The notes under the pieces: model-generated
Told to the model about the DNA's origin: nothing
The model's database searches: none
Seen by the model: the letters and a program-made list of their open reading frames with translations, nothing else
Made by a program: the position numbers and the translations under genes
Shown here: positions 15,164 to 36,465 of the stretch, piece after piece
Layout: each line of letters opens with the position of its first letter
Position numbering within the stretch: position 1 is the stretch's first letter
Source: Candidatus Omnitrophota bacterium
GTDB taxonomy: Bacteria; Omnitrophota; Gorgyraeia; Velamenicoccales; JABMQK01
Assembly: GCA_028711115.1 (NCBI GenBank)
Contig: JAQTSV010000001.1
Coordinates: forward strand, 1,030,032 to 1,094,031
Length of the DNA: 64,000 nucleotides
Direction of reading: 5' to 3'

Positions 15164-15910
15164 TTAACCTATTTTTATGTTTTTTTTGGTGCGCATCTTG
15201 GCTAATTCCCAGGAATATTCGTATAGATGCAGACCTTTGCTTAATGCTATAATTTCGCCGTCTTCCACTCCGATTTCTTCAGCCATATATTGCTTAACCA
15301 ACTGCAACCCTCCCAGATTTGAAGGAAAGCCGCCCCATAAATCCCAGGAACGAAAATAAAGTATGAAATGCAACTTGCCATTGCGGATTCTTGTATCGAT
15401 TAAACGCAGGCACGGCGGGTCAGCCAAATAAATATCCGAAGGCATTCCTATTTCCATAGTGGCCTGGTTTGTACCAAAGCCTTGCGTCTTATACATCTTA
15501 ATAACCTCTTCCACCTGATTTACATTAAGAGGGATTTCTTTGACCATTTCTTTGCCGTCTTTAGATTCTTTAATTCTGACTTTTGCGTCAACCAATCTCT
15601 CGCCGTAAGTATAATCTTCAGTATTCGTCTTTGTCCCGGTGAGAAGATAACTCAAGTATCCCTGAATATAATCCATATCTGTGGGCGCAGGAATACTCAT
15701 ACCTTCAGGGATTATAGGGATAATCTGATGCCCGGGATTTTTTACGTGCACGCAGGCCAAATCAAATTCCAGGCGCCTCTGGCCCTGGTAACTGCCCCTT
15801 GTGATTTCATAGACCACGCCGTTATCCAGTATAGAACTCAGACACTGGAACCAGGCGTCGTCCAAATCGAAGGCCTCAATAAACACAGGTTTTAGAAATT
15901 TATTCTCCAT
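15164..15910 (-). CDS. thymidylate synthase (ThyA) superfamily protein, divergent/archaeal-like
   Basis: 248 aa. The core aligns by eye with E. coli ThyA: PPC catalytic Cys (ADPPCLRL), FRSWDLWGGFPSN versus YQRSCDVFLGLPFN, LHLYE versus THLYS. Confidence 0.7.
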   Translation of the reverse strand: MENKFLKPVFIEAFDLDDAWFQCLSSILDNGVVYEITRGSYQGQRRLEFDLACVHVKNPGHQIIPIIPEGMSIPAPTDMDYIQGYLSYLLTGTKTNTEDYTYGERLVDAKVRIKESKDGKEMVKEIPLNVNQVEEVIKMYKTQGFGTNQATMEIGMPSDIYLADPPCLRLIDTRIRNGKLHFILYFRSWDLWGGFPSNLGGLQLVKQYMAEEIGVEDGEIIALSKGLHLYEYSWELAKMRTKKNIKIG

Positions 15911-27604: not shown

Positions 27605-28399
27605 TTATTTCTTGGATTTTCTGTACGCCTCTAAATATGCCTTGCAATAAATCTGCTGATTTAAAATCAACTCTGCGGTAATAAGAGCATCCATAAGTTT
27701 TTCGTCTAACGGATCCAATATGGCCGCATCCAATCCTGCCTCTTGAGCCATGACCAAAAAAGTCCTGTTGACCAAACTCCTGTCCAGCGCCCCTTGAGAA
27801 ATATTGCTCAAGCCTACAATAGTCTTTGGCGACGGGTCGCATAATAATTTGAATTCTCTGACTGCCTCTATGATTCCTTTTAACTGCGCCTGCGCCACAT
27901 CTACCGGCATTACTACCGGATCCAGATATAGCTCAGTCACGGGAAAATCGTTTTCCATACAAAAGGCAATGATATTTGCAGCCAATTCCAATCTCTGTTC
28001 CTTATTCTGCGGAATGCCTTTCTTATCTATAGAAAGTGCAATCAATCCGGAATTATATTCTTTGGCCAAAGGCACGAGTATCTCCAATTTCTCTTTATCG
28101 GCAGTGGTGGAATTGATGATTACCTTGTTTTTGGCTTTCTTGATTGCCTCACAAATTACTTTGGATTTGCTGGAATCAATGACAATGGTCTTGTCGGTTA
28201 CGCTCTGCACATTATCAATAAGCCACTGCATATCCGTAATCGGATCTTTGGATACAGGCCCGCAATTTAAATCCAATGCATCTGCGCCTGCATCTACCTG
28301 TGCCTTGGCAATTTTCTGAATGACGGATTTATCTTTTTTGACTATTGCCTCGCCTACTTCTTTATACATTCCGTTTAACAATTCACCGATAATCAACAT
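27605..28399 (-). CDS. acsE: methyl-H4folate:corrinoid/Fe-S protein methyltransferase
   Basis: 264 aa pterin-binding barrel (DAGADALDLNCGP, LSNISQG). Last gene of the acs-like block. Confidence 0.85.
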   Translation of the reverse strand: MLIIGELLNGMYKEVGEAIVKKDKSVIQKIAKAQVDAGADALDLNCGPVSKDPITDMQWLIDNVQSVTDKTIVIDSSKSKVICEAIKKAKNKVIINSTTADKEKLEILVPLAKEYNSGLIALSIDKKGIPQNKEQRLELAANIIAFCMENDFPVTELYLDPVVMPVDVAQAQLKGIIEAVREFKLLCDPSPKTIVGLSNISQGALDRSLVNRTFLVMAQEAGLDAAILDPLDEKLMDALITAELILNQQIYCKAYLEAYRKSKK

Positions 28400-28400
28400 A

Positions 28401-29366
28401 TTATCTCTCCATCAATTTATCTATGGTTTGTCTTACAGCGTCTATTGCCCTGGGATGGCGCATAACCAAAATATCTGCGCCTGACTGTAAAAATGTTGTG
28501 GCGGTTAAGGCCTCCCAGACAACACCCCTTTCTAATTCTTTGCCCCATTGAGGATATTCGGCCATGGTTGCCTTTGCTTCTTTGGCACGCCAGCTCTCAG
28601 AACCCACAAAACAAATAAACGGCTGCGCCAGCATCTTGTCTCCTGTCAAGGCAGCAAGCCTTGCCCTCTCCATAATGGAATAAGCATACTCCAAACCATA
28701 ACCCAAGGCACCGACAGTGGGATTGATTACAATTTTATCCAGGGCAAATCCCATTTCATGAATCAAAATATTGAGCTGCTTGGCGATGTTTATATCTATG
28801 GGCGATTCGGCAATAATATTGTGCCCGTCGGCCAAACAGGCCCCGACCAGGGTTTTGTAATTCTCCTGGGCTGCACTACCGAATAAACACCTTTCACCTC
28901 TGGCTGCCTCAGCGCAGGCAGGTAAAACCAAATTATCTTTTGCGTCGTCACCGCAACCCACTACTATTAAAGGTAATGAGGTCTTGGAAATAATTTCCCT
29001 GACTAATTTTGCTTCCTGTTCCGGGCTGCGGTTGCCAAAATCCGGATGCGCGCCCTGCAATCTCAAACAAATTAAATCTGCCTTGATTTTATCAATCGCC
29101 TTTTTCGACCATAATACCGGATCGGAATAAACATCTTTTAATTCCGCATCCAAAGAAGGAGACCAGTCAATAGGAGCTATATCCCAGACCTCAGCGGCAA
29201 TAACCGGCCTGTGTGGAATTTCTCCGTCGCTAAATATAAACGGCAATGTAGCTTGCCCGCCGATTTTTATATTAGATGATCTGGTACCGCCTTCATTTTT
29301 GGTGGCACCTATGGTTACCGTATTAATCTTTGCTGACCATTTTTCCTGTGCTAATTCTTTAAGCAA
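28401..29366 (-). CDS. acsD: corrinoid/Fe-S protein small subunit (CdhD/AcsD)
   Basis: 321 aa with AcsD-like sequence. TTG start with AAGGAG 8 nt upstream. 16-nt overlap with cooC. Confidence 0.85.
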   Translation of the reverse strand: MLKELAQEKWSAKINTVTIGATKNEGGTRSSNIKIGGQATLPFIFSDGEIPHRPVIAAEVWDIAPIDWSPSLDAELKDVYSDPVLWSKKAIDKIKADLICLRLQGAHPDFGNRSPEQEAKLVREIISKTSLPLIVVGCGDDAKDNLVLPACAEAARGERCLFGSAAQENYKTLVGACLADGHNIIAESPIDINIAKQLNILIHEMGFALDKIVINPTVGALGYGLEYAYSIMERARLAALTGDKMLAQPFICFVGSESWRAKEAKATMAEYPQWGKELERGVVWEALTATTFLQSGADILVMRHPRAIDAVRQTIDKLMER

Positions 29367-30109
29367 GACCTGCTCCTTTCGGTGATATGAGAAAATATTT
29401 CGTTTGTCTCTTTGATAATCTGTGTTTTTTCGTCTAAATTCATTATACTTATCTCACCTGCATCTGAAATATTTACATCTTCGGAAATAAATCCGGCAAT
29501 CTCCGCGGGAAAATCAATATCTGTCTTTTTGTTTAACTTTACCCGATTGACGACGAGATAAATTTCTTTATATTCTATCTTCAGTTCTTTCACCAAATCA
29601 AAAATTCTCCTGGCTGCCTTAAGGCCCTGCGGCGTGCTGTCACTGATAATAATAAGCGTATCTATTTTCTTTAATGTCTTGCGGGAAAGATGCTCAAAGC
29701 CAGCCTCGTTATCTATCACGATATAATCGTAATTCGACATAAGTTTTGAAGATACGTTTCTTAAGACATTATTTACATAACAATAACAACCTGTGCCTTC
29801 CGGCCTTCCCAGCGTCAACAAATCGAATCCCTCGGCTTCGTCGAGCGTTGTCTCGATGCGATAACTGATAAATTCGTCCTTACTCATATTAAGCGGAATC
29901 TGGCTGATATTTCTGGAAATGTCGTCGATGATTCTGCCGATATCCTGTGTAGGTTTGAATCCCAGCAATTCTCCTAAATTACTGTTCGGGTCCGCATCTA
30001 TAGCTAAAACAGAACCGGCTTTTTGTTTAACCAGATAACGGATAAGAAGGCTGGCAATGGTAGTCTTACCCACTCCTCCTTTTCCGGCAAATGCAATTAT
30101 ATTATTCAT
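29351..30109 (-). CDS. cooC: CooC/AcsF-type Ni-insertion ATPase
   Basis: 252 aa. Deviant Walker A GKGGVGKT and CxC metal motif (GTGCYCYV). Confidence 0.85.
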   Translation of the reverse strand: MNNIIAFAGKGGVGKTTIASLLIRYLVKQKAGSVLAIDADPNSNLGELLGFKPTQDIGRIIDDISRNISQIPLNMSKDEFISYRIETTLDEAEGFDLLTLGRPEGTGCYCYVNNVLRNVSSKLMSNYDYIVIDNEAGFEHLSRKTLKKIDTLIIISDSTPQGLKAARRIFDLVKELKIEYKEIYLVVNRVKLNKKTDIDFPAEIAGFISEDVNISDAGEISIMNLDEKTQIIKETNEIFSHITERSRSCLKN

Positions 30110-30132
30110 ACGCCTCGCTTAATTTTACATTT

Positions 30133-30558
30133 TTATAATAAGTATCCATATTGGGAATAACCGCCTCCCATACTTATGGCGCCATTTTCATCGATATATA
30201 TGCTATAGCCAGTAGCGTTACCTAAATAATATTCGACGTCTGTTCTCCTAGTAGCTACTCCCACTAATCCTCCTATCGCTGCTACTCTACCCCAATATCG
30301 AAAATATTTCCCATAATTCGTTCCATAATTATCTATCGTGACATCCAACGGAGATATGTCTGCTCCACAATAAGCCCCATATTGTGCATAATATGTGAGT
30401 TGTGCAGAACGTATTGTGGAAAGTATATTTTTTGCCTCTGCTACTCTGGATTTCTCAGCAATTCTCTGATATCTTGGTAAAGCAATAGATGCCAAAATTC
30501 CAATTACAATAATAACTATAATTAATTCAATCAAAGTAAAACCATCTCTGTAAAACAT
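30133..30558 (-). CDS. type IV pilin-like protein (prepilin N-terminal methylation motif), Tyr-rich
   Basis: MFYRDG|FTLIELIIVIIVIGILASIALP with Glu5. 19 of 135 mature residues are aromatic (16 Tyr), counted by hand. Confidence 0.85.
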   Translation of the reverse strand: MFYRDGFTLIELIIVIIVIGILASIALPRYQRIAEKSRVAEAKNILSTIRSAQLTYYAQYGAYCGADISPLDVTIDNYGTNYGKYFRYWGRVAAIGGLVGVATRRTDVEYYLGNATGYSIYIDENGAISMGGGYSQYGYLL

Positions 30559-30621
30559 TTGGTTCTTATTTCATTCTCCTCTTATAAACTAGAATAAACC
30601 GAAACAAGAAGTTAATCAAAC

Positions 30622-32511
30622 TTATATTTTGACTGAAGCAAATCTATTACTATCCGTATGCGGAAAAAACAAGGCCGCCACATATTCATCCATATACGTC
30701 GCATCTGTAGAAAGCTCAAAATAAGTCATCTTCTTGGCAATGTCCTGGGATTTTTGCAAAGCGTCAGAAGACAACAATATTTCTCTTGAGCCCGCCAAAG
30801 AACTATTGCCTATAAAGCTGAATTTCTTTCTGTCTAAATCCGGTAAAAGGCCGATAGTAATCGACTTTTCTATATCCAGGTATGTGCCGAATCCTCCGGC
30901 AATAAAAATCTGCTCAATTGCGGAAAATTCCAAACCCATATGTCTCACCAAAACAGAAGCCGCAGAAAAAATCGCAGCCTTGGCGCGTTTTATATTCTCT
31001 ATGTCTGCCTCGGTAATAACTATATCGGAATCTTTTTTATTGGCGACGACGAATTCCTTGCCTTGCTCACCGTCACGGATACGCGTATTTGCCTTATTGG
31101 TATTGAATTTACCGTTCTTATCGATTATTCCTGTCTTCAAAAGCTCAGCCAAAAGGTCAATATATCCTGAACCGCAGATTCCTGAAGGCGGAACATTACC
31201 TATGGTATCGCACTTCAGAGATAAATCTTTGGGATTTATGCTCACTCTTTGTATGGCTCCGTTGACAGCGCGCATTCCGCAGGCAACGCCGCTTCCTTCA
31301 AACGCCGGGCCGGCAGAAGCTGCGGCGCAGATTAACCAATCTTTATTGCCTAAAACAATCTCGCCATTTGTCCCGATATCAATAAATAAAGTCAATTTTT
31401 CCGTCTTATACATTCCGCTGGACAAAACTCCTGCTGTGACATCTCCACCCACATAACTGGATATACCGGAAACGCAGAACAATAAACCACGCGGATTAAT
31501 CCTTAAGCCTGCCTCGGCCGCCCGGACAACCGGAACAAAATTTGCCGTGGGCACATACGGGTCCCTTCTGATAAAAGTGGGATCCACTTTTAAAAGCAGA
31601 TGGATCATCGTGGTATTCCCGGCACATACGCAACAAGTCACATCGGACAAATTAATGCCGTGCTCGCTGATTAAATCAACAATAATCATATTCATTCCGT
31701 CTATGACAGCGTGGTGCAATACTCCCAATCCGTCTTCTTTCTGCGCATAAATTATGCGGCTGATAACATCAGCGCCAAATGTCGCCTGCCTGTTATAGGT
31801 AATCCTTGTGCCCAATACCTTTTTGTTATTAAGATCAACCAACTGGCCAGACAAAGTAGTCGTGCCTATATCAAAGGCAATACCATAATTTTTCAAAGAT
31901 GTGTCTTGCGGCTCAACCAAAACTATCTCAGTCGTGCCATTCCTGTTGCCTAATGTCACCGTGACTTTCCAATCGCTTAAACGCAATAGCTCTCCCAGCC
32001 CACGGATATTAGCCAGACCGGTCTGCATAATCTGGATGTCTTTAATCTTGCAAATCCCGCGGTACAATCTCTCCAGATCGCTTATGCGGTCTGCTTGATC
32101 TGGCTGCGGTAATTCTAAAAATAATTTCGTGGCCAAAGGCGAATGTATAAAAATATCTTCACTCTCGGCTGGTTTTACTGTCTCTATCTCTTCTGTCTTT
32201 GTATAGACGCTAATCCTGTCCAAACCCAGACGCGACTCTGCAGGGATTTCCACCTCTAAATCGCTCTCTATAGTGGCCAGACACGCCAAGACATAACCTT
32301 TTTTTCTTTCTTCCTGAGAAATTCGTCCGCTCGGCTGCGCATAGACAGAACCTTTTTTGACAATAACCTTGCACCTGCCGCAGACACCATCTCCGCCGCA
32401 GCTGGAGTTAAGGTAAATTCCAGCCGAAATCGCAGAAGAAAGTATTGTGCTGCCTTTATCTACTTCTGCAACTTTGTTATCCGGATAAAATGTGACTTTG
32501 AATTTTTCCAT
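30622..32511 (-). CDS. reductive activator of corrinoid/Fe-S protein (RACo/AcsV; 2Fe-2S ferredoxin + ASKHA ATPase)
   Basis: 629 aa. N-terminal plant-type ferredoxin Cys cluster (CGGDGVCGRC...C) followed by ASKHA-like domains. Sits between acsC and cooC, as in known acs clusters. Confidence 0.85.
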   Translation of the reverse strand: MEKFKVTFYPDNKVAEVDKGSTILSSAISAGIYLNSSCGGDGVCGRCKVIVKKGSVYAQPSGRISQEERKKGYVLACLATIESDLEVEIPAESRLGLDRISVYTKTEEIETVKPAESEDIFIHSPLATKLFLELPQPDQADRISDLERLYRGICKIKDIQIMQTGLANIRGLGELLRLSDWKVTVTLGNRNGTTEIVLVEPQDTSLKNYGIAFDIGTTTLSGQLVDLNNKKVLGTRITYNRQATFGADVISRIIYAQKEDGLGVLHHAVIDGMNMIIVDLISEHGINLSDVTCCVCAGNTTMIHLLLKVDPTFIRRDPYVPTANFVPVVRAAEAGLRINPRGLLFCVSGISSYVGGDVTAGVLSSGMYKTEKLTLFIDIGTNGEIVLGNKDWLICAAASAGPAFEGSGVACGMRAVNGAIQRVSINPKDLSLKCDTIGNVPPSGICGSGYIDLLAELLKTGIIDKNGKFNTNKANTRIRDGEQGKEFVVANKKDSDIVITEADIENIKRAKAAIFSAASVLVRHMGLEFSAIEQIFIAGGFGTYLDIEKSITIGLLPDLDRKKFSFIGNSSLAGSREILLSSDALQKSQDIAKKMTYFELSTDATYMDEYVAALFFPHTDSNRFASVKI

Positions 32512-32514
32512 GAA

Positions 32515-33843
32515 TTACATTTTCTTCAGAAAAGAAGGCAAGCCCGATGCCTCTTTGGGGCCGACTATAATCTGCCAGCCGCTCTTATCCTCTAAATCTC
32601 CGCTCATTACCGAAACATAACCCGGGATAATGAGCTTATTGTGTTTTATTTTTTCTTTTAATCCTGATTTTGCCAAAGAATCCGTTATCTTTTCCGGTGT
32701 AAACTTTTCCGCTGCCCAGGCTGTAAGAACTGACATGCCTTCGGTATCCACGCTCAAAATATACGACGGAACTTTGCTCGCTTCCACTTCGCCCAAAACA
32801 GTATAATAACTCAGAGAGAAATTAGTCGTGACCATTACCGGCGACTGTTCATTCACCTGTCCGATGTTATAAACCTTAGGCTCAACCTGTAATGGCTTCT
32901 GCGGATCAGTATAAATATTCTGCCTTAAAGTAAGCAGGGCTAAAGTCTGCCACGCCTCTACGGTTTTAATTAAGACTATGGAGGCATATTTTGCAATATA
33001 AGTTCCTGCTTCAATCGCCTCCTGATAAGGATCTGCGTCTTCCACTACTGTTATTACAGGATAACCTATGGAGCGCCTTTTTTTCTTTAAAGCCAGCCTT
33101 CTTGCAAAAGTCAAATCTTCGATTTTCTTGGTTATCGATTTATTGCCGGTATCCAAAACGATATCCGATAAGCCTTCCTGATTTGCTTTCTGGGCAAGCT
33201 CTTCTATTTTTTCTAATTCGCCCGCGCTGATTGCCAGGGAAACGCCGTATGCCTTTGCTAAAGCCGCGAATTCTTTTATATTTTCCTCTGTGGCTTTATA
33301 TATCAAAGGTTTCTGTTTGGCGCAATTTTCCAAAGCCCCTTTTAATGCCTGGACATCGTTAGCCATAAGCACTAAGCCCAAATTGGAAAGCTGGGAAATT
33401 TTCTTTGCCTTCTGGACAAAATTATCCGCCTTGCCGGTTTGCCTTAAAGCAATGAGGTTTACTTTTATCAATTGCCCGACGCGCTCAAAACTTAGATTAT
33501 TTATAATCTTAACCTTATTGCCGAACTCGGAATCGCTGATATTGTCGTCGATAATAAAACCTATGGCTGTGGGATTGTGAAATTTCTCCTCGTGACGGAA
33601 CAATACTGTTTCGTTACCTACCTCTACTTTATCGTCTCCTGTGCCGATTGTTACCGTGCGCATCGGCGGAAGCGATGCCTGCTCCAAGGCATCTTTTACT
33701 TCTGGTTTTATAAAAGGGCATTTTTCCAGCGCAACTTGTTTCTTTGCCAAAGCCATGGCAAAAGCAAGACAGGTGGAATAACCGCACTGGCGGCAATTCG
33801 TCTTGGGCAATAGTTTGTAAATATCCAATCCAGAGAGAGCCAT
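32515..33843 (-). CDS. acsC: corrinoid/Fe-S protein large subunit (CdhE/AcsC)
   Basis: 442 aa. N-terminal 4Fe-4S motif (CRQCGYSTCLAF...CP), then a TIM barrel and a corrinoid-binding domain. Confidence 0.88.
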   Translation of the reverse strand: MALSGLDIYKLLPKTNCRQCGYSTCLAFAMALAKKQVALEKCPFIKPEVKDALEQASLPPMRTVTIGTGDDKVEVGNETVLFRHEEKFHNPTAIGFIIDDNISDSEFGNKVKIINNLSFERVGQLIKVNLIALRQTGKADNFVQKAKKISQLSNLGLVLMANDVQALKGALENCAKQKPLIYKATEENIKEFAALAKAYGVSLAISAGELEKIEELAQKANQEGLSDIVLDTGNKSITKKIEDLTFARRLALKKKRRSIGYPVITVVEDADPYQEAIEAGTYIAKYASIVLIKTVEAWQTLALLTLRQNIYTDPQKPLQVEPKVYNIGQVNEQSPVMVTTNFSLSYYTVLGEVEASKVPSYILSVDTEGMSVLTAWAAEKFTPEKITDSLAKSGLKEKIKHNKLIIPGYVSVMSGDLEDKSGWQIIVGPKEASGLPSFLKKM

Positions 33844-33847
33844 CTTC

Positions 33848-34978
33848 TTATTCTCCTTTGCTGAATTTCGCGATTACATCCTTTAGGGCAATATTTCTTG
33901 AATTAGCAATCTTTACGCAATCATCATATTCGGGAATAATTTTATTGTATTTTTTGTCCGTAACTTCCTTGAACCTTACTTTTCCTATGGAAGAATTTAA
34001 AATACCCTGTCTTCTTTTTAACTTTATCCTGTCGGCCTTAAAATATCTTAAGCCTAAAGTGGTGGTTTGGCGAAAGATAATACGAGCTATTGTATCGAAA
34101 GTTTCATATCTTGACAATACAGAAATTAAAATTCCTGACCGCGATTTCTTTGTATGATAATTCTGAAAATATACTTCCAGGGCTCCTGCCTGGTAAAGTT
34201 TATCCATGAGAAAACCCAGAATCTGCGGGCTCATATCATCGATGTTACACTGCATGACTAAAATTTCATCTTGCTCAAGATTAGTTTTCTTTTCTTCCTG
34301 CAATATAGCGGTTCGTAAAATATTCAAACAATCTGTGGACGCAATACTTCCTGTCCCGCAGCCTGACTTCTGAAGGATAAAACTATATTTAATATCTTTT
34401 TGCATCTGTGAACCTAAGGTAGTAATTATGGCTATCCCTGTGGGCGTTATATTTTCGTATTGATGTTGGCTCAAGCGAATATTCTTTGACTTAAGCATAT
34501 AGGCTGTGGCAGGCGCAACTTTCTCTCCGAAAGGCACCGAAGAATATAAAATGCGATCAACATTTAACTTATTTATCAATATACAGCTTGCAGCGATGTC
34601 GATAATGGAATCCACTTCGCCCAACTGCTCAAAGTGCGCGTGTTTTGCATCGTGCACATTCTTTTCTGCGTTGTAAAGAGTATTATAGACATCCAGGATG
34701 TTCTTTTTTGTCTGGCTATCTAATTTTGAGCCGTTAATCTTATTCTTGATTTCCTTGAATTGAAAAACTCTTTTAGTTCTGGCCGAATCCTTTACTACAA
34801 AACGAAAGGCTTTAATATGGCCTGCCTGGCATTTAAAACTTTTCAATTCGTATTCTCTTAAATTTATTTTCTTTAATTCGCTTTTTAAATAATTAAAATT
34901 ACCGGAAAGATCCAGAAGACTGGCCACAATCATATCGCCGCTGATTCCGTCGATTAAATCAAAGTATAAATATTTCAT
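33848..34978 (-). CDS. larC: LarC (DUF111) nickel-insertion protein of nickel-pincer cofactor biosynthesis
   Basis: 376 aa. MKYLYFDLIDGISGDM start and C-terminal PEYDDCVKIA motif, both typical of LarC. Confidence 0.85.
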   Translation of the reverse strand: MKYLYFDLIDGISGDMIVASLLDLSGNFNYLKSELKKINLREYELKSFKCQAGHIKAFRFVVKDSARTKRVFQFKEIKNKINGSKLDSQTKKNILDVYNTLYNAEKNVHDAKHAHFEQLGEVDSIIDIAASCILINKLNVDRILYSSVPFGEKVAPATAYMLKSKNIRLSQHQYENITPTGIAIITTLGSQMQKDIKYSFILQKSGCGTGSIASTDCLNILRTAILQEEKKTNLEQDEILVMQCNIDDMSPQILGFLMDKLYQAGALEVYFQNYHTKKSRSGILISVLSRYETFDTIARIIFRQTTTLGLRYFKADRIKLKRRQGILNSSIGKVRFKEVTDKKYNKIIPEYDDCVKIANSRNIALKDVIAKFSKGE

Positions 34979-34989
34979 AATTTTTGTAT

Positions 34990-35661
34990 TTATCTGTTAT
35001 TTATGAGGCTGGCTATGTATCCGGCGCCAAATCCGTTATCGATATTCACCACTGCTATACCCGGCGAACAGCTGTTTATCATTGTAAGTAAGGCGGACAA
35101 TCCTTTGAAGTTTGCGCCGTAGCCGCAACTTGTAGGCACAGCTATTACCGGCGCCTTTACCAAACCGCTTACTAGACTTGCCAAAGCAGCCTCCATTCCG
35201 GCCACAACCACTATCACATTTGCCTTCCTCAAGAATTCCAAATGGTTAAGTATGCGGTGCGTGCCTGCAACTCCCACATCATAAACTTTTCGCACTTTAT
35301 TACCCATAATCTCCAGAGTCAGAACCGCCTCTTCTGCCACCGGGATATCTATGGTCCCTGCGGAAAGCACCAAAACTTCCCTATTTTTATTTTTTATCTT
35401 ATTCTTTTTTAAGAATCCGAACCGCGCAGTTTCATTATATTGGAGAAAAGGGAATTTTGATTTCAGATACAGGAATTTTTCTCTATCTAAGCGCGTAAGA
35501 AATATAACTTTTTGATTATATTTGATAAACTGGGAGAGAATTTTGGCTATTTGTTCTTTGGATTTGTTCTCGCAATATATCGCCTCAGAAAAACCCCTCC
35601 GAGCCTGGCGGTCAATGTCCACCTTGGCAAACTTTAAATCCACAAAACCCTTTTTTTTCAT
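34990..35661 (-). CDS. larB: LarB (PurE-like NaAD carboxylase/hydrolase)
   Basis: 223 aa. AKVDIDRQARRGFSEAIYC, AGTIDIPVAEEA and VAGMEAALASLV motifs. Confidence 0.85.
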   Translation of the reverse strand: MKKKGFVDLKFAKVDIDRQARRGFSEAIYCENKSKEQIAKILSQFIKYNQKVIFLTRLDREKFLYLKSKFPFLQYNETARFGFLKKNKIKNKNREVLVLSAGTIDIPVAEEAVLTLEIMGNKVRKVYDVGVAGTHRILNHLEFLRKANVIVVVAGMEAALASLVSGLVKAPVIAVPTSCGYGANFKGLSALLTMINSCSPGIAVVNIDNGFGAGYIASLINNR

Positions 35662-35957
35662 AGATAAACTACAAGATACGACAAAATAGATATAATCAGA
35701 AGAGCAAAGATATAGAAGTCATTGTAGTAGAAGAAATCGCTTATTTTATCCCGGAAAGAATAAGCTAGAGAATTTTGTTTTGCGGTGGGTATTATTTTAT
35801 CTTTGATAGCATCCAGTTGTTCTTGTTTGAATCTTAAGTAAACACCTCCCACTTTATAAGCTGGGATGATGCTTTTTTCCGATAATTCAATAATCTCGCC
35901 TTCGGTAATACCTAAGTATTGCGATGCCTCGCGGATTGTAAGTAACTTCTCTTTCAT
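35658..35957 (-). CDS. excisionase-type HTH protein with C-terminal transmembrane anchor
   Basis: 99 aa. LTIREASQYLGITEGEIIELSEKSIIPAYKVGGVYLRF (HTH_17-like) followed by FYIFALLIISILSYLVVYL. The stop overlaps the larB ATG (ATGA). Confidence 0.65.
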   Translation of the reverse strand: MKEKLLTIREASQYLGITEGEIIELSEKSIIPAYKVGGVYLRFKQEQLDAIKDKIIPTAKQNSLAYSFRDKISDFFYYNDFYIFALLIISILSYLVVYL

Positions 35958-35958
35958 G

Positions 35959-36465
35959 TTAACCTATCTTTCCTGCGGCGATCCAGTCGTCTATTCTCTT
36001 CCTCTCGAATTTCCATTCTTCACCTTCTTTGAAACCAGGGATTTTCCCCGAATTCGCCCACTGCACAATCGTGTCATGATCCAGTTCCAGGTGTTTTGCC
36101 AGATCATCCGCATTGAGAATATCATGCATCATAATACAGGTACCCTGGAATATAGCTCCGTCGGAGATAACCAATCGCGGCGTCTTTATATTGCCTTCCA
36201 CTACAGCATGATTTAACAATTCGATCCTTGAATCTGATTCAATGTCGCCCTTCACCCTGCCGGAGATACTGATATTCTCGCATTTTATATGAGCATCTAC
36301 GAATGCTGTATCGCTGATTGTGAGATTTCCCTTAACTTCCAACCTGCCTTCGAATTTACCGTTTATTTTTAGATTCACCGGATCCTTAAATACCAAACTT
36401 CCCTGCATAGCTGCATCAACGTCGATGGTGTGTTCCTCGCGATCTTTCTTATTTCTTAATCCCAT
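35959..36465 (-). CDS. bactofilin fused to a C-terminal excisionase-type HTH
   Basis: 168 aa. Bactofilin beta-helix repeats (INGKFEGRLEVKGNLTISDTAFVDAHI...GRVKGDI...VVEGNIKT) followed by DLAKHLELDHDTIVQWANSGKIPGFKEGEEWKF. GGAGGTGG lies 5 nt before the ATG. Confidence 0.75.
   Translation of the reverse strand: MGLRNKKDREEHTIDVDAAMQGSLVFKDPVNLKINGKFEGRLEVKGNLTISDTAFVDAHIKCENISISGRVKGDIESDSRIELLNHAVVEGNIKTPRLVISDGAIFQGTCIMMHDILNADDLAKHLELDHDTIVQWANSGKIPGFKEGEEWKFERKRIDDWIAAGKIG

Follow-up and report, generated by a model that had tools for sequence, protein, structure and literature searches.

The genes from acsC to acsE in this Candidatus Omnitrophota window (the whole 64-kb stretch of DNA that was analyzed) probably make up the corrinoid half of a Wood-Ljungdahl pathway that is split over two chromosomal loci across an Omnitrophota clade, a reading given a probability of roughly two in three. 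The split-cluster clade is a large Omnitrophota group (class Velamenicoccia, order Gygaellales). The CODH/ACS of the window's own genome is most likely encoded elsewhere in that genome, and larB and the LarC-like gene preceding acsC most likely serve nickel-pincer-type cofactor metabolism rather than the corrinoid module.

The seven genes larB, larC, acsC, RACo/acsV, cooC, acsD, and acsE all lie on the minus strand and are supported by HMMs at the coordinates listed below, bearing out the calls, order, coordinates, and 11-nt and 4-nt spacings of the initial annotation, which had, however, overlooked a prepilin-type ORF between RACo and cooC.

35658..35957, minus strand: HTH_17/excisionase-type DNA-binding protein, 99 aa (TIGR01764, 32.4 bits)
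34990..35661, minus strand: larB, NaAD carboxylase/hydrolase of nickel-pincer cofactor biosynthesis (NF033503 equivalog, 289 bits, cut-off 175)
33848..34978, minus strand: LarC-like protein of a divergent "short-loop" subgroup (PF01969, 323 bits)
32515..33843, minus strand: acsC, large (gamma) subunit of the corrinoid iron-sulfur protein (NF003195, 579 bits, cut-off 306; PF04060 and PF03599)
30622..32511, minus strand: RACo/acsV, ATP-dependent reductive activator of the corrinoid protein (2Fe-2S, linker, middle, and ASKHA domains: Fer2, RACo_linker, Raco_middle, RACo_C_ter)
30133..30558, minus strand: prepilin-type protein, 141 aa, between RACo and cooC (PF07963, TIGR02532)
29351..30109, minus strand: cooC/acsF-type P-loop ATPase, nickel-insertion accessory for CODH/ACS (CooC1, 3kje, E = 2e-17)
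28401..29366, minus strand: acsD, small (delta) subunit of the corrinoid iron-sulfur protein (NF003376, 432 bits, cut-off 280)
27605..28399, minus strand: acsE, methyltetrahydrofolate:corrinoid/iron-sulfur protein methyltransferase (NF005719, 292 bits, cut-off 259; PF00809)

Only 11 nt separate larB from larC and 4 nt separate larC from acsC, which has its ribosome-binding site (AGGAG) within the 3' end of larC. Upstream, the HTH gene's stop codon overlaps the start codon of larB (ATGA), so that larB is coupled as tightly to its upstream neighbor, and all genes in the 64 kb are co-directional and tightly packed. As had been claimed, the 64 kb holds no acsA, acsB, larE, or larA according to a Pfam or NCBIfam scan of minus-strand ORFs of at least 90 aa, and tblastn with Omnitrophota AcsA and AcsB queries found no match in the window.

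Cys17, Cys20, Cys25, and Cys42 of AcsC are invariant among 38 clade members. RACo scores 670 bits against NF040756, under the exception-level cut-off of 800. The CooC-type ATPase, which occupies the same position as in canonical acs clusters, aligns with CooC1 (3kje, its best solved relative) and keeps both the GKGGVGKT P-loop and the CxC motif; the intact CxC nickel motif was counted in favor of a CODH/ACS encoded elsewhere. The cooC gene has been lost from 8 related loci, as might be expected if ACS maturation were less in demand in some of them. No related locus, not even the nearest (L174), has the prepilin-type gene at this place (NCBI names the product of the 141-aa ORF a prepilin-type domain protein); the insertion is specific to the window's lineage.

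A genome scan with AcsC returned 80 loci, and the acsC-to-acsE module of 44 related Omnitrophota species genomes is embedded in a single conserved housekeeping block (gatCAB-ctp-deacetylase-tsaD-mgtC-HTH-HTH-larB ... dgkA-tilS-ftsH-folP). The HTH gene belongs to this block and is directly upstream of LarB in the relatives too, dgkA recurs downstream of the module, and the block as a whole, about 25 kb of unrelated housekeeping genes, is equally syntenic. Neither acsA nor acsB was found near the module in any of the 44 loci or in the window. In 41 of the 44 genomes larB is directly upstream of the module, even though AcsC identity to the window's protein across these 41 is only 55–65%. One relative (L042) has the module without larB, and in L029 the module lies in a different context, after trpF, again without larB. 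The slot that separates larB from acsC is variable, with an FmdE-like gene in 27 loci and no gene in 15; a LarC-like gene occupies it in the window and in at least three other lineages (L022, L174, and L175/L176), with LarC proteins 37–64% identical to the window's. The two kinds of slot gene never occur together: an occupied slot has either the FmdE-like gene, whose product carries an HGH...C motif, or the LarC-like gene. The larB gene itself belongs to the conserved housekeeping block. In a neighbor-joining tree of 127 AcsC sequences, all AcsC proteins of the larB-type arrangement form one clade, whose sister comprises Omnitrophota with adjacent acsB-acsC; the arrangement has a single origin.

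The missing genes were found at a separate, conserved Omnitrophota locus with the order fhs-fchA-folD-metF-acsA-fdx-oxidoreductase-acsB, followed by TPR-polA-glgA-coaE-rho. A metagenome scan with AcsB yielded 14 loci in which acsC does not follow acsB. Ten of them form a coherent AcsB group (71–88% identical, GC 0.40–0.47); fhs...acsA...acsB is seen wherever the flanking sequence is long enough, and most have TPR-polA-glgA-coaE-rho downstream. A relative's assembly from the same project as the window (GCA_028710715.1) contains both loci, with larB-FmdE-acsC-RACo-cooC-acsD-acsE on JAQTTO010000006.1 and fhs-fchA-folD-metF-acsA-fdx-oxidoreductase-acsB on JAQTTO010000004.1; in two assemblies, the NCBI protein accessions of the two loci are about 220 apart. 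This co-occurrence indicates that the Wood-Ljungdahl cluster is split, and favors the option, raised in the initial annotation, that CODH/ACS is encoded elsewhere. None of the 240 AcsB relatives listed lies on a contig the size of the one (1,566,446 bp) that carries proteins identical to the window's, but as the lists give the best 120 matches per search this is no proof of absence. Genomes of these families are reported to encode a partial or complete Wood-Ljungdahl pathway, with AcsA/CooS absent from 24 of their species (PMC10066038); some lineages may therefore have an incomplete second locus.

In the proposed scheme, AcsE would transfer the methyl group of methyl-tetrahydrofolate to the Co(I) of the AcsC/AcsD corrinoid iron-sulfur protein, RACo would use ATP to re-reduce accidentally oxidized Co(II), and the CooC/AcsF-type ATPase would aid nickel loading into CODH/ACS. 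The methylated corrinoid protein would then pass its methyl group to acetyl-CoA synthase (AcsB), which in this clade would be supplied from the second locus, together with the products of fhs, fchA, folD, metF, and acsA, ferredoxin, and an FAD oxidoreductase. The larB and larC genes would be functionally independent of the acs genes.

With respect to the latter pair, neither family call was reassigned by HMM searches. LarB matches NF033503 and aligns with Lactiplantibacillus plantarum LarB (7mj0/8soq; E = 1e-62), including the Cys of the "NSC" motif. The LarC-like protein matches PF01969 and exceeds the NCBIfam cut-offs for both LarC1 (100.6 bits, cut-off 90) and LarC2 (125.5 bits, cut-off 50), and keeps 38 of 50 near-invariant LarC-family columns. 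Its CTP-binding LarC2 half is conserved, but the LarC1 histidine cluster is incomplete: relative to Moorella thermoacetica LarC (12bi), His108 and His116 are kept, His118 is replaced by Glu and Glu119 by Gln, and the His160 loop is deleted. Three histidines are essential in Moorella LarC (PMC13510736), and the subgroup lacks two of them. The initial designation of LarC as a nickel-inserting cyclometallase therefore needs qualification.

It is unlikely that the window's genome lacks acetyl-CoA synthase altogether and that AcsE, the corrinoid protein, and RACo act on their own as a methyl carrier serving some other acceptor. Price et al. are said to have reported in 2021 that core-MetE enzymes can take methyl groups from corrinoid proteins, and a folate-independent core-MetE-type methionine synthase is a candidate acceptor, in which case the system would be a split MetH. 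The lack of acsA and acsB in the 64 kb, the AcsB lists, the dispensability of cooC in 8 loci, and truncated carbonyl branches in these families (PMC10066038) are consistent with such a carrier. On the other hand, acsA and acsB are present at a second locus in a relative that shares the arrangement, and Omnitrophota commonly have such loci; the window's CooC keeps its CxC motif, and none of the 44 loci encodes an alternative methyl acceptor close to the module.

Read in a functional sense, the placing of larB-larC "in the position of CODH/ACS" by the initial annotation is weakly supported. A functional tie of larB and the slot gene (LarC-like or FmdE-like), which might provide a pyridinium-dicarboxylate-derived cofactor or metal handling for a module protein, is improbable, and a link between LarB/LarC and the corrinoid protein likewise has weak support. 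The order is held across 41 divergent genomes, the ribosome-binding site of acsC lies within larC, the two kinds of slot gene exclude each other, and the loss of canonical nickel-site histidines suggests a changed function; gene context has also recently exposed nickel-pincer users outside the LarA family (PMC13524815). Tight spacing and deep larB-slot-acsC conservation would also be expected from a functional link. However, synteny is equally strong for the flanking, unrelated housekeeping genes, translational coupling also joins larB to the HTH gene upstream, L042 and L029 keep the module without larB, the slot is often empty, and canonical acs clusters of Omnitrophota and other phyla lack a lar or FmdE gene. 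Moreover, two Omnitrophota genomes contain larB, larC, and larE without larA, and acsC (K00197) and acsD (K00194) are not among the KOs listed for them, which weakens the case for a place of larB/larC at CODH/ACS. Finally, a chance juxtaposition peculiar to the window's genome is hardly credible. In its favor, all genes in the 64 kb are tightly packed in one direction, and the initial annotation had tied it to acsA/acsB lying elsewhere and to an adjacency unique to this genome. The former do lie elsewhere in a relative, but the adjacency is clade-wide: larB-acsC recurs in 41 species genomes and larB-larC-acsC in at least three further lineages with LarC proteins of low identity. Chance adjacency unique to this genome is refuted by that recurrence.

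Among known systems, the lar operon of L. plantarum (larA-larB-larC1C2-larD-larE) and larBCE clusters share with the window the LarB equivalog with its active-site Cys and a PF01969 LarC-family gene adjoining larB. The window differs in having no larE or larA within 64 kb and a LarC-like protein without the His118, Glu119, and His160 loop of the nickel site, and most relatives have an FmdE-like gene or nothing in the place of larC. NphT, an AKR-family protein, is a nickel-pincer user found by gene context, in a search that required larB, larE, and larC within 20 ORFs (PMC13524815). As in NphT systems, lar biosynthesis genes without larA, seen in two Omnitrophota genomes with larB, larC, and larE, point to a further nickel-pincer user, whereas the window clusters only larB and a degenerate larC, with no AKR-type candidate nearby.

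The acs clusters of M. thermoacetica and Carboxydothermus hydrogenoformans (acsA-acsB-acsC-orf7-cooC-acsD-acsE) share the genes and order of their 3' half with the window (acsC, RACo/orf7, cooC/acsF, acsD, acsE). This likeness, drawn in the initial annotation, was confirmed in Bacillota and Omnitrophota loci, where the canonical order is acsA-(fdx-oxidoreductase)-acsB-acsC-RACo-cooC-acsD-acsE. In the window, by contrast, the module has no neighboring acsA or acsB; it lies within a housekeeping block, behind larB and a LarC-like gene, and is interrupted by a pilin-type gene between RACo and cooC. Zhuang et al. reportedly described an incomplete Wood-Ljungdahl pathway in Dehalococcoides mccartyi in 2014; this genus retains acsB, acsC, and acsD and is not known to have acsA, acsE, or metF. 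It is a precedent for a partial acs set outside classical acetogenesis and for a corrinoid protein in an unusual gene set, although the window has acsE and RACo, and in its relatives acsA and acsB are found at a second locus. A further comparison is with one-piece Omnitrophota superclusters (for example, GCA_002780005.1 PEWV01000022.1; L043 and L045), ordered fhs-fchA-folD-metF-cooC-acsA-fdx-oxidoreductase-acsB-acsC-RACo-cooC-acsD-acsE, whose AcsC proteins are 55–58% identical to the window's and form the sister of its clade. Relative to these superclusters, the window's clade has the cluster cut between acsB and acsC, with the two halves in different conserved neighborhoods.

The window has a G+C content of about 40%, and essentially all of its genes lie on the minus strand. 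The acs module and the genes directly upstream of it are arranged as follows.

Features of the acs module in the window (coordinates, strand, product)
35957..35658, -, 99-aa HTH protein, directly upstream of larB
35661..34990, -, LarB (NF033503, 289 bits)
34978..33848, -, LarC-family protein (PF01969, 323 bits)
33843..32515, -, AcsC (NF003195; PF04060 and PF03599)
32511..30622, -, RACo/AcsV (four Pfam domains in order)
30558..30133, -, 141-aa prepilin-type ORF with an N-methylation motif, between RACo and cooC
30109..29351, -, CooC-type ATPase (match to CooC1, 3kje)
29366..28401, -, AcsD (NF003376)
28399..27605, -, AcsE (NF005719; PF00809)

The initial annotation had called larB, larC, acsC, RACo, cooC, acsD, and acsE from the sequence alone, and the HMM check bears out these calls. 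All pass curated HMM cut-offs except CooC, for which the libraries used hold no specific model and return only generic ParA/CbiA matches; its closest solved relative is CooC1 (3kje, E = 2e-17), with whose motifs its GKGGVGKT and CYC sequences align. It has the deviant Walker A P-loop, the Cys-x-Cys metal motif, and the acs-cluster location of CooC/AcsF proteins. AcsC (NF003195, 579 bits, cut-off 306; PF04060 and PF03599 both present) and AcsD (NF003376, 432 bits, cut-off 280) are predicted to form the corrinoid iron-sulfur protein, the large subunit having a 4Fe-4S cysteine motif and a CdhD-type barrel/corrinoid domain and the small subunit being of the CdhD type. Residues C17, C20, C25, and C42 of AcsC are invariant among 38 clade members. 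AcsE scores 292 bits with NF005719 (cut-off 259) and contains the pterin-binding TIM barrel (PF00809); under the narrower, exception-level model NF040758 it reaches 147 bits against a cut-off of 370. RACo/AcsV has its 2Fe-2S ferredoxin, linker, middle, and ASKHA ATPase domains in order, and its 670.6 bits with NF040756 fall under the exception-level cut-off of 800.

The reported spacings of 11 nt between larB and larC and of 4 nt between larC and acsC are confirmed from the sequence, and the HTH gene upstream ends in a stop codon that overlaps the larB start codon. The order acsC-RACo-cooC-acsD-acsE also stands, but the 141-aa prepilin-type ORF between RACo and cooC had been missed. An insertion of this type occurs at this position in the window's lineage only, and the sole homologue found among unassigned ORFs of the related loci is at locus L044, downstream of acsE. 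Scans for promoters and terminators gave counts near shuffle expectation and are therefore uninformative on operon limits. Three Candidatus Omnitrophota assemblies, GCA_028716625.1 (JAQUPK010000001.1) and two others, encode proteins identical to the window's.

The puzzle posed by the initial annotation was a complete methyl-carrier system accompanied by two nickel-handling proteins, without a visible nickel enzyme. Its statement that larE, larA, acsA, and acsB are absent from the 64 kb held up: none was found among the minus-strand ORFs of at least 90 aa, all of which were scanned, and neither family scans nor tblastn detected Prismane or CdhC proteins in the 64 kb. The stretch holds neither a complete CODH/ACS cluster, with acsA and acsB beside the corrinoid protein genes, nor, lacking larE and larA, a nickel-pincer cluster of larB, larE, and larC together. 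The other ORFs are housekeeping genes (gatCAB, tsaD, tilS, ftsH, folP, cdaA, his and thr genes, alaS, valS, recA, secDF, and others). TilS, the only PP-loop protein in the 64 kb, was considered as a hidden LarE and rejected, since strong TilS-specific models match it (TIGR02432 at 184 bits, and the substrate-binding domain of TilS); likewise, ORFs of 629 and 723 aa (46.9-51.0 kb), considered as AcsA/AcsB, proved to be a TRCF-type helicase and SecDF. A 248-aa thymidylate-synthase-like protein (15164-15910, minus strand) has as its top model the archaeal "methano" ThyA TIGR03283, at 106 bits (cut-off 174.6).

A scan with AcsC, one genome per species, yielded 80 loci, the top match being 65% identical to the window's AcsC. 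By tblastn synteny on these loci, 44 Omnitrophota species genomes have one block in common, with the order gatCAB-ctp-polysaccharide deacetylase-tsaD-mgtC-bactofilin-HTH-HTH-larB-[slot]-acsC-RACo-(cooC)-acsD-acsE-(dgkA)-tilS-ftsH-folP, in which the slot is a variable position between larB and acsC. In 41 of the 44 loci, larB immediately precedes the module; a contig end intervenes in two, and one (L042) is without larB. Chance adjacency of lar and acs genes, unique to this genome, is thereby refuted, larB-acsC being found in 41 species genomes and larB-larC-acsC in at least four lineages. The slot encodes an FmdE-like protein in 27 loci and a LarC-family protein in one (L022), and is empty in 15; FmdE-like and LarC-like genes never occur in it together. 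The FmdE-like proteins, found for instance between larB and acsC in L002-L047 and L172 (L172:7406-7828), have 133-144 aa, belong to PF02663, and carry the motifs FHGHLGPY and SC..DG.Q.STG.T.GKGN. No literature linking FmdE with corrinoids or LarB was found. Neither acsA nor acsB occurs within the 10-kb flanks of any of the 44 loci, and cooC is missing between RACo and acsD in eight (L008, L011, L013, L016, L023, L024, L030, and L042). Block members with a published taxonomy, in the part of Table S1 of PMC10066038 that was available, belong to the class Velamenicoccia, order Gygaellales, families Profunditerraquicolaceae and UBA12090.

Immediately upstream of larB, a pair of genes is kept throughout the clade; in the window these encode a 168-aa bactofilin domain fused to HTH_17 (35959-36465, minus strand), followed by the 99-aa HTH_17 protein (35658-35957). 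In one relative, a 6-kb insertion separates acsD from acsE (L023:12435-18380) and encodes a STAS-HATPase protein, a CHASE2-SpoIIE phosphatase, a GAF-HD protein, and three ORFs without family matches.

LarB scores 289 bits with the equivalog model NF033503 (cut-off 175) and matches L. plantarum LarB (7mj0/8soq) at E = 1e-62, with alignment of the cysteine of the "NSC" motif, which we take to be the catalytic residue. Judged by its sequence, it is a canonical LarB, a predicted P2CMN synthase of PurE-like fold, and its LarC-family neighbor is not canonical. The latter passes the family models (PF01969, 323 bits; LarC1, 100.6 bits, cut-off 90; LarC2, 125.5 bits, cut-off 50) and matches M. thermoacetica LarC (12bi) over its full length (E = 1e-43). 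The essential residues of the M. thermoacetica enzyme are H108, H118, and H160, and its acidic pocket, which includes E119, is important (PMC13510736). The window's protein keeps D15, E104, H108, H116, D124, D128, and E187, together with the conserved LarC2 (CTP-binding) residues, but has Glu at 118 and Gln at 119, and the 11-residue loop with H160 is deleted. Its earlier description as a nickel-inserting cyclometallase is thus upheld at the level of the family models and not at the histidine cluster needed for LarC activity, which is incomplete. The H108/H116/H118/E119/H160 pattern is present in 98 of 153 aligned family members, and 38 of 50 near-invariant columns are kept in the window's protein, whereas canonical members average 48.5 and keep no fewer than 41. 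The altered site is also found in the L022 protein and in the nearest 50%-identity cluster representatives. According to look-ups, the cluster representatives P0365 (64% identical) and P0366 (41%) are both encoded within HTH-larB-larC-acsC, in the same slot. Across the lineages with larB-larC-acsC, the LarC-like proteins are 37-64% identical while AcsC stays near 60%. These proteins constitute a fast-evolving, slot-specific LarC subgroup, and it would be premature to credit them with nickel insertion. Two Omnitrophota genomes (58 and 231) in the covered part of a published KO table (PMC10066038, supplementary file 6) have larB, larC, and larE without larA; acsC and acsD are not present for them in that part, so that, as far as it extends, lar genes occur independently of acs in the phylum. 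These two genomes suggest that a nickel-pincer-dependent enzyme other than LarA exists in the phylum.

The ordinary arrangement is seen at loci whose AcsC is less similar to the window's, among them those of other Omnitrophota (L043, L045, and L048). In AcsB look-ups, this one-piece order reads fhs-fchA-folD-metF-cooC-acsA-fdx-FAD oxidoreductase-acsB-acsC-RACo-cooC-acsD-acsE. In a neighbor-joining tree of 127 AcsC sequences, the larB-linked arrangement forms one clade, sister to canonical Omnitrophota, and therefore appears to have arisen once; L042 and L029, in which the module follows trpF without larB, are nested inside it. A metagenome scan with AcsB found acsC downstream in 50 loci and no acsC in 14, while 16 were too short to tell. 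Among the 14, ten make up a coherent group by AcsB sequence (71-88% mutual identity, GC 0.40-0.47). Their layout, which recurs where flanks reach and whose full version comes from look-ups of related AcsB proteins, is rplS-rnhB-UPF0102-fhs-fchA-folD-metF-acsA-fdx-oxidoreductase-acsB, then TPR-polA-glgA-coaE-rho-rpmE-prfA-prmC. AcsB of this type falls into more than 120 protein clusters, many labeled Omnitrophota. The NCBI accessions of AcsB P0172 (MDD4980346, MDD5592366) and AcsC P0332 (MDD4980564, MDD5592587) place the two about 220 proteins from each other in each of two assemblies. For GCA_028710715.1, an assembly of the groundwater project to which the window also belongs, contig look-ups place larB-FmdE-acsC-RACo-cooC-acsD-acsE on JAQTTO010000006.1 and fhs...acsA...acsB-TPR-polA on JAQTTO010000004.1. 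With the two halves on separate contigs, the break in this clade's cluster falls between acsB and acsC, and the suggestion that CODH/ACS is encoded elsewhere holds for this relative. By its corrinoid half, the window falls under a category defined in this analysis as the split Wood-Ljungdahl arrangement of Gygaellales Omnitrophota: its module lies in the tsaD-mgtC-HTH-HTH-larB...tilS-ftsH-folP block, and its AcsC is nested in the corresponding clade. The further element of that category, a second locus with fhs...acsA...acsB and then TPR-polA in the same genome, is shown for GCA_028710715.1 and predicted for the window's genome. A partial or complete Wood-Ljungdahl pathway is reported for the families of the block members in PMC10066038, in agreement with a split cluster; a 2026 preprint on complete Omnitrophota genomes makes no mention of the pathway.

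At the second locus of the split type, cooC does not precede acsA, as it does in one canonical cluster (L081-L084). In the distant loci L133, L146, and L160 (GC 0.46-0.54; AcsB about 55% identical to that of L043), acsB is followed by TPR-polA and not by acsC, which suggests that the split may reach beyond the clade studied. In several genomes of Omnitrophota and relatives, AcsB is interrupted near residue 506 by an intein that carries a LAGLIDADG homing endonuclease (L045:6164-9991, L048, L054, L071, L134, and L137; P0035, P0040, P0046, P0056, P0079, and P0087), and the NCBI name of some of them is just "LAGLIDADG family homing endonuclease."

On the best-supported reading, with a probability of roughly 0.68, the region encodes one half, the corrinoid half, of a split Wood-Ljungdahl pathway. 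AcsE would methylate the AcsC/AcsD corrinoid protein, RACo would repair it, CooC would serve nickel loading, and the second locus would encode the ACS that receives the methyl group; larB and the LarC-like gene adjoin the module by ancient, clade-wide synteny. It is unlikely that the window's genome has no ACS and that the module is a stand-alone methyl carrier. Among 240 AcsB homologues listed (the best 120 per search), none is on a contig of the sizes that carry the window's proteins; in or beside the module at the 44 loci, a search for an alternative methyl acceptor encountered only dgkA, PilZ, pilin, signaling, and other unrelated genes.

A real functional link between lar and acs, to which we give an equally low weight, would account for a larB-slot-acsC junction that is conserved at depth and translationally tight, for a slot that is FmdE-like or LarC-like and never both, and for the altered nickel site of the LarC-like protein. 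However, unrelated flanking genes are equally syntenic, larB is coupled just as closely to the upstream HTH gene, canonical acs clusters are without lar genes, and L042, L029, and the 15 empty slots are exceptions. Slightly less probable again is the more specific proposal that larB and the slot gene, LarC-like without the canonical nickel-site histidines or FmdE-like with HGH...C, are a cassette working with the corrinoid/ACS system in this clade. Such a cassette might provide a methyl-branch protein with a cofactor derived from pyridinium-dicarboxylate, possibly free of sulfur, or handle a metal for it; if true, the proposal would put Lar chemistry to a new use and give bacterial FmdE-like proteins their first role.

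With the corrinoid half and the acsA-acsB half of the split pathway at two loci in the lineage, the nickel-enzyme puzzle mostly dissolves. For pathway calls in metagenome-assembled Omnitrophota, it follows that a split on fragmented contigs can mimic a "partial" Wood-Ljungdahl pathway. What remains of interest is the conserved larB-[FmdE-like, LarC-like, or nothing]-acsC junction, the LarC subgroup with essential nickel-insertion residues missing, and the occurrence of larBCE without larA, each of which could guide a search for new nickel-pincer enzymes; a 2026 study (PMC13524815) described new users of the cofactor that do not belong to the LarA family. The genes themselves are of known kinds and already annotated by NCBI (as LarB, LarC family, and ACDS gamma), and it is their organization that is new, a split pathway with a larB-slot-acsC junction, together with the degenerate LarC subgroup and its FmdE-like alternative in the slot.
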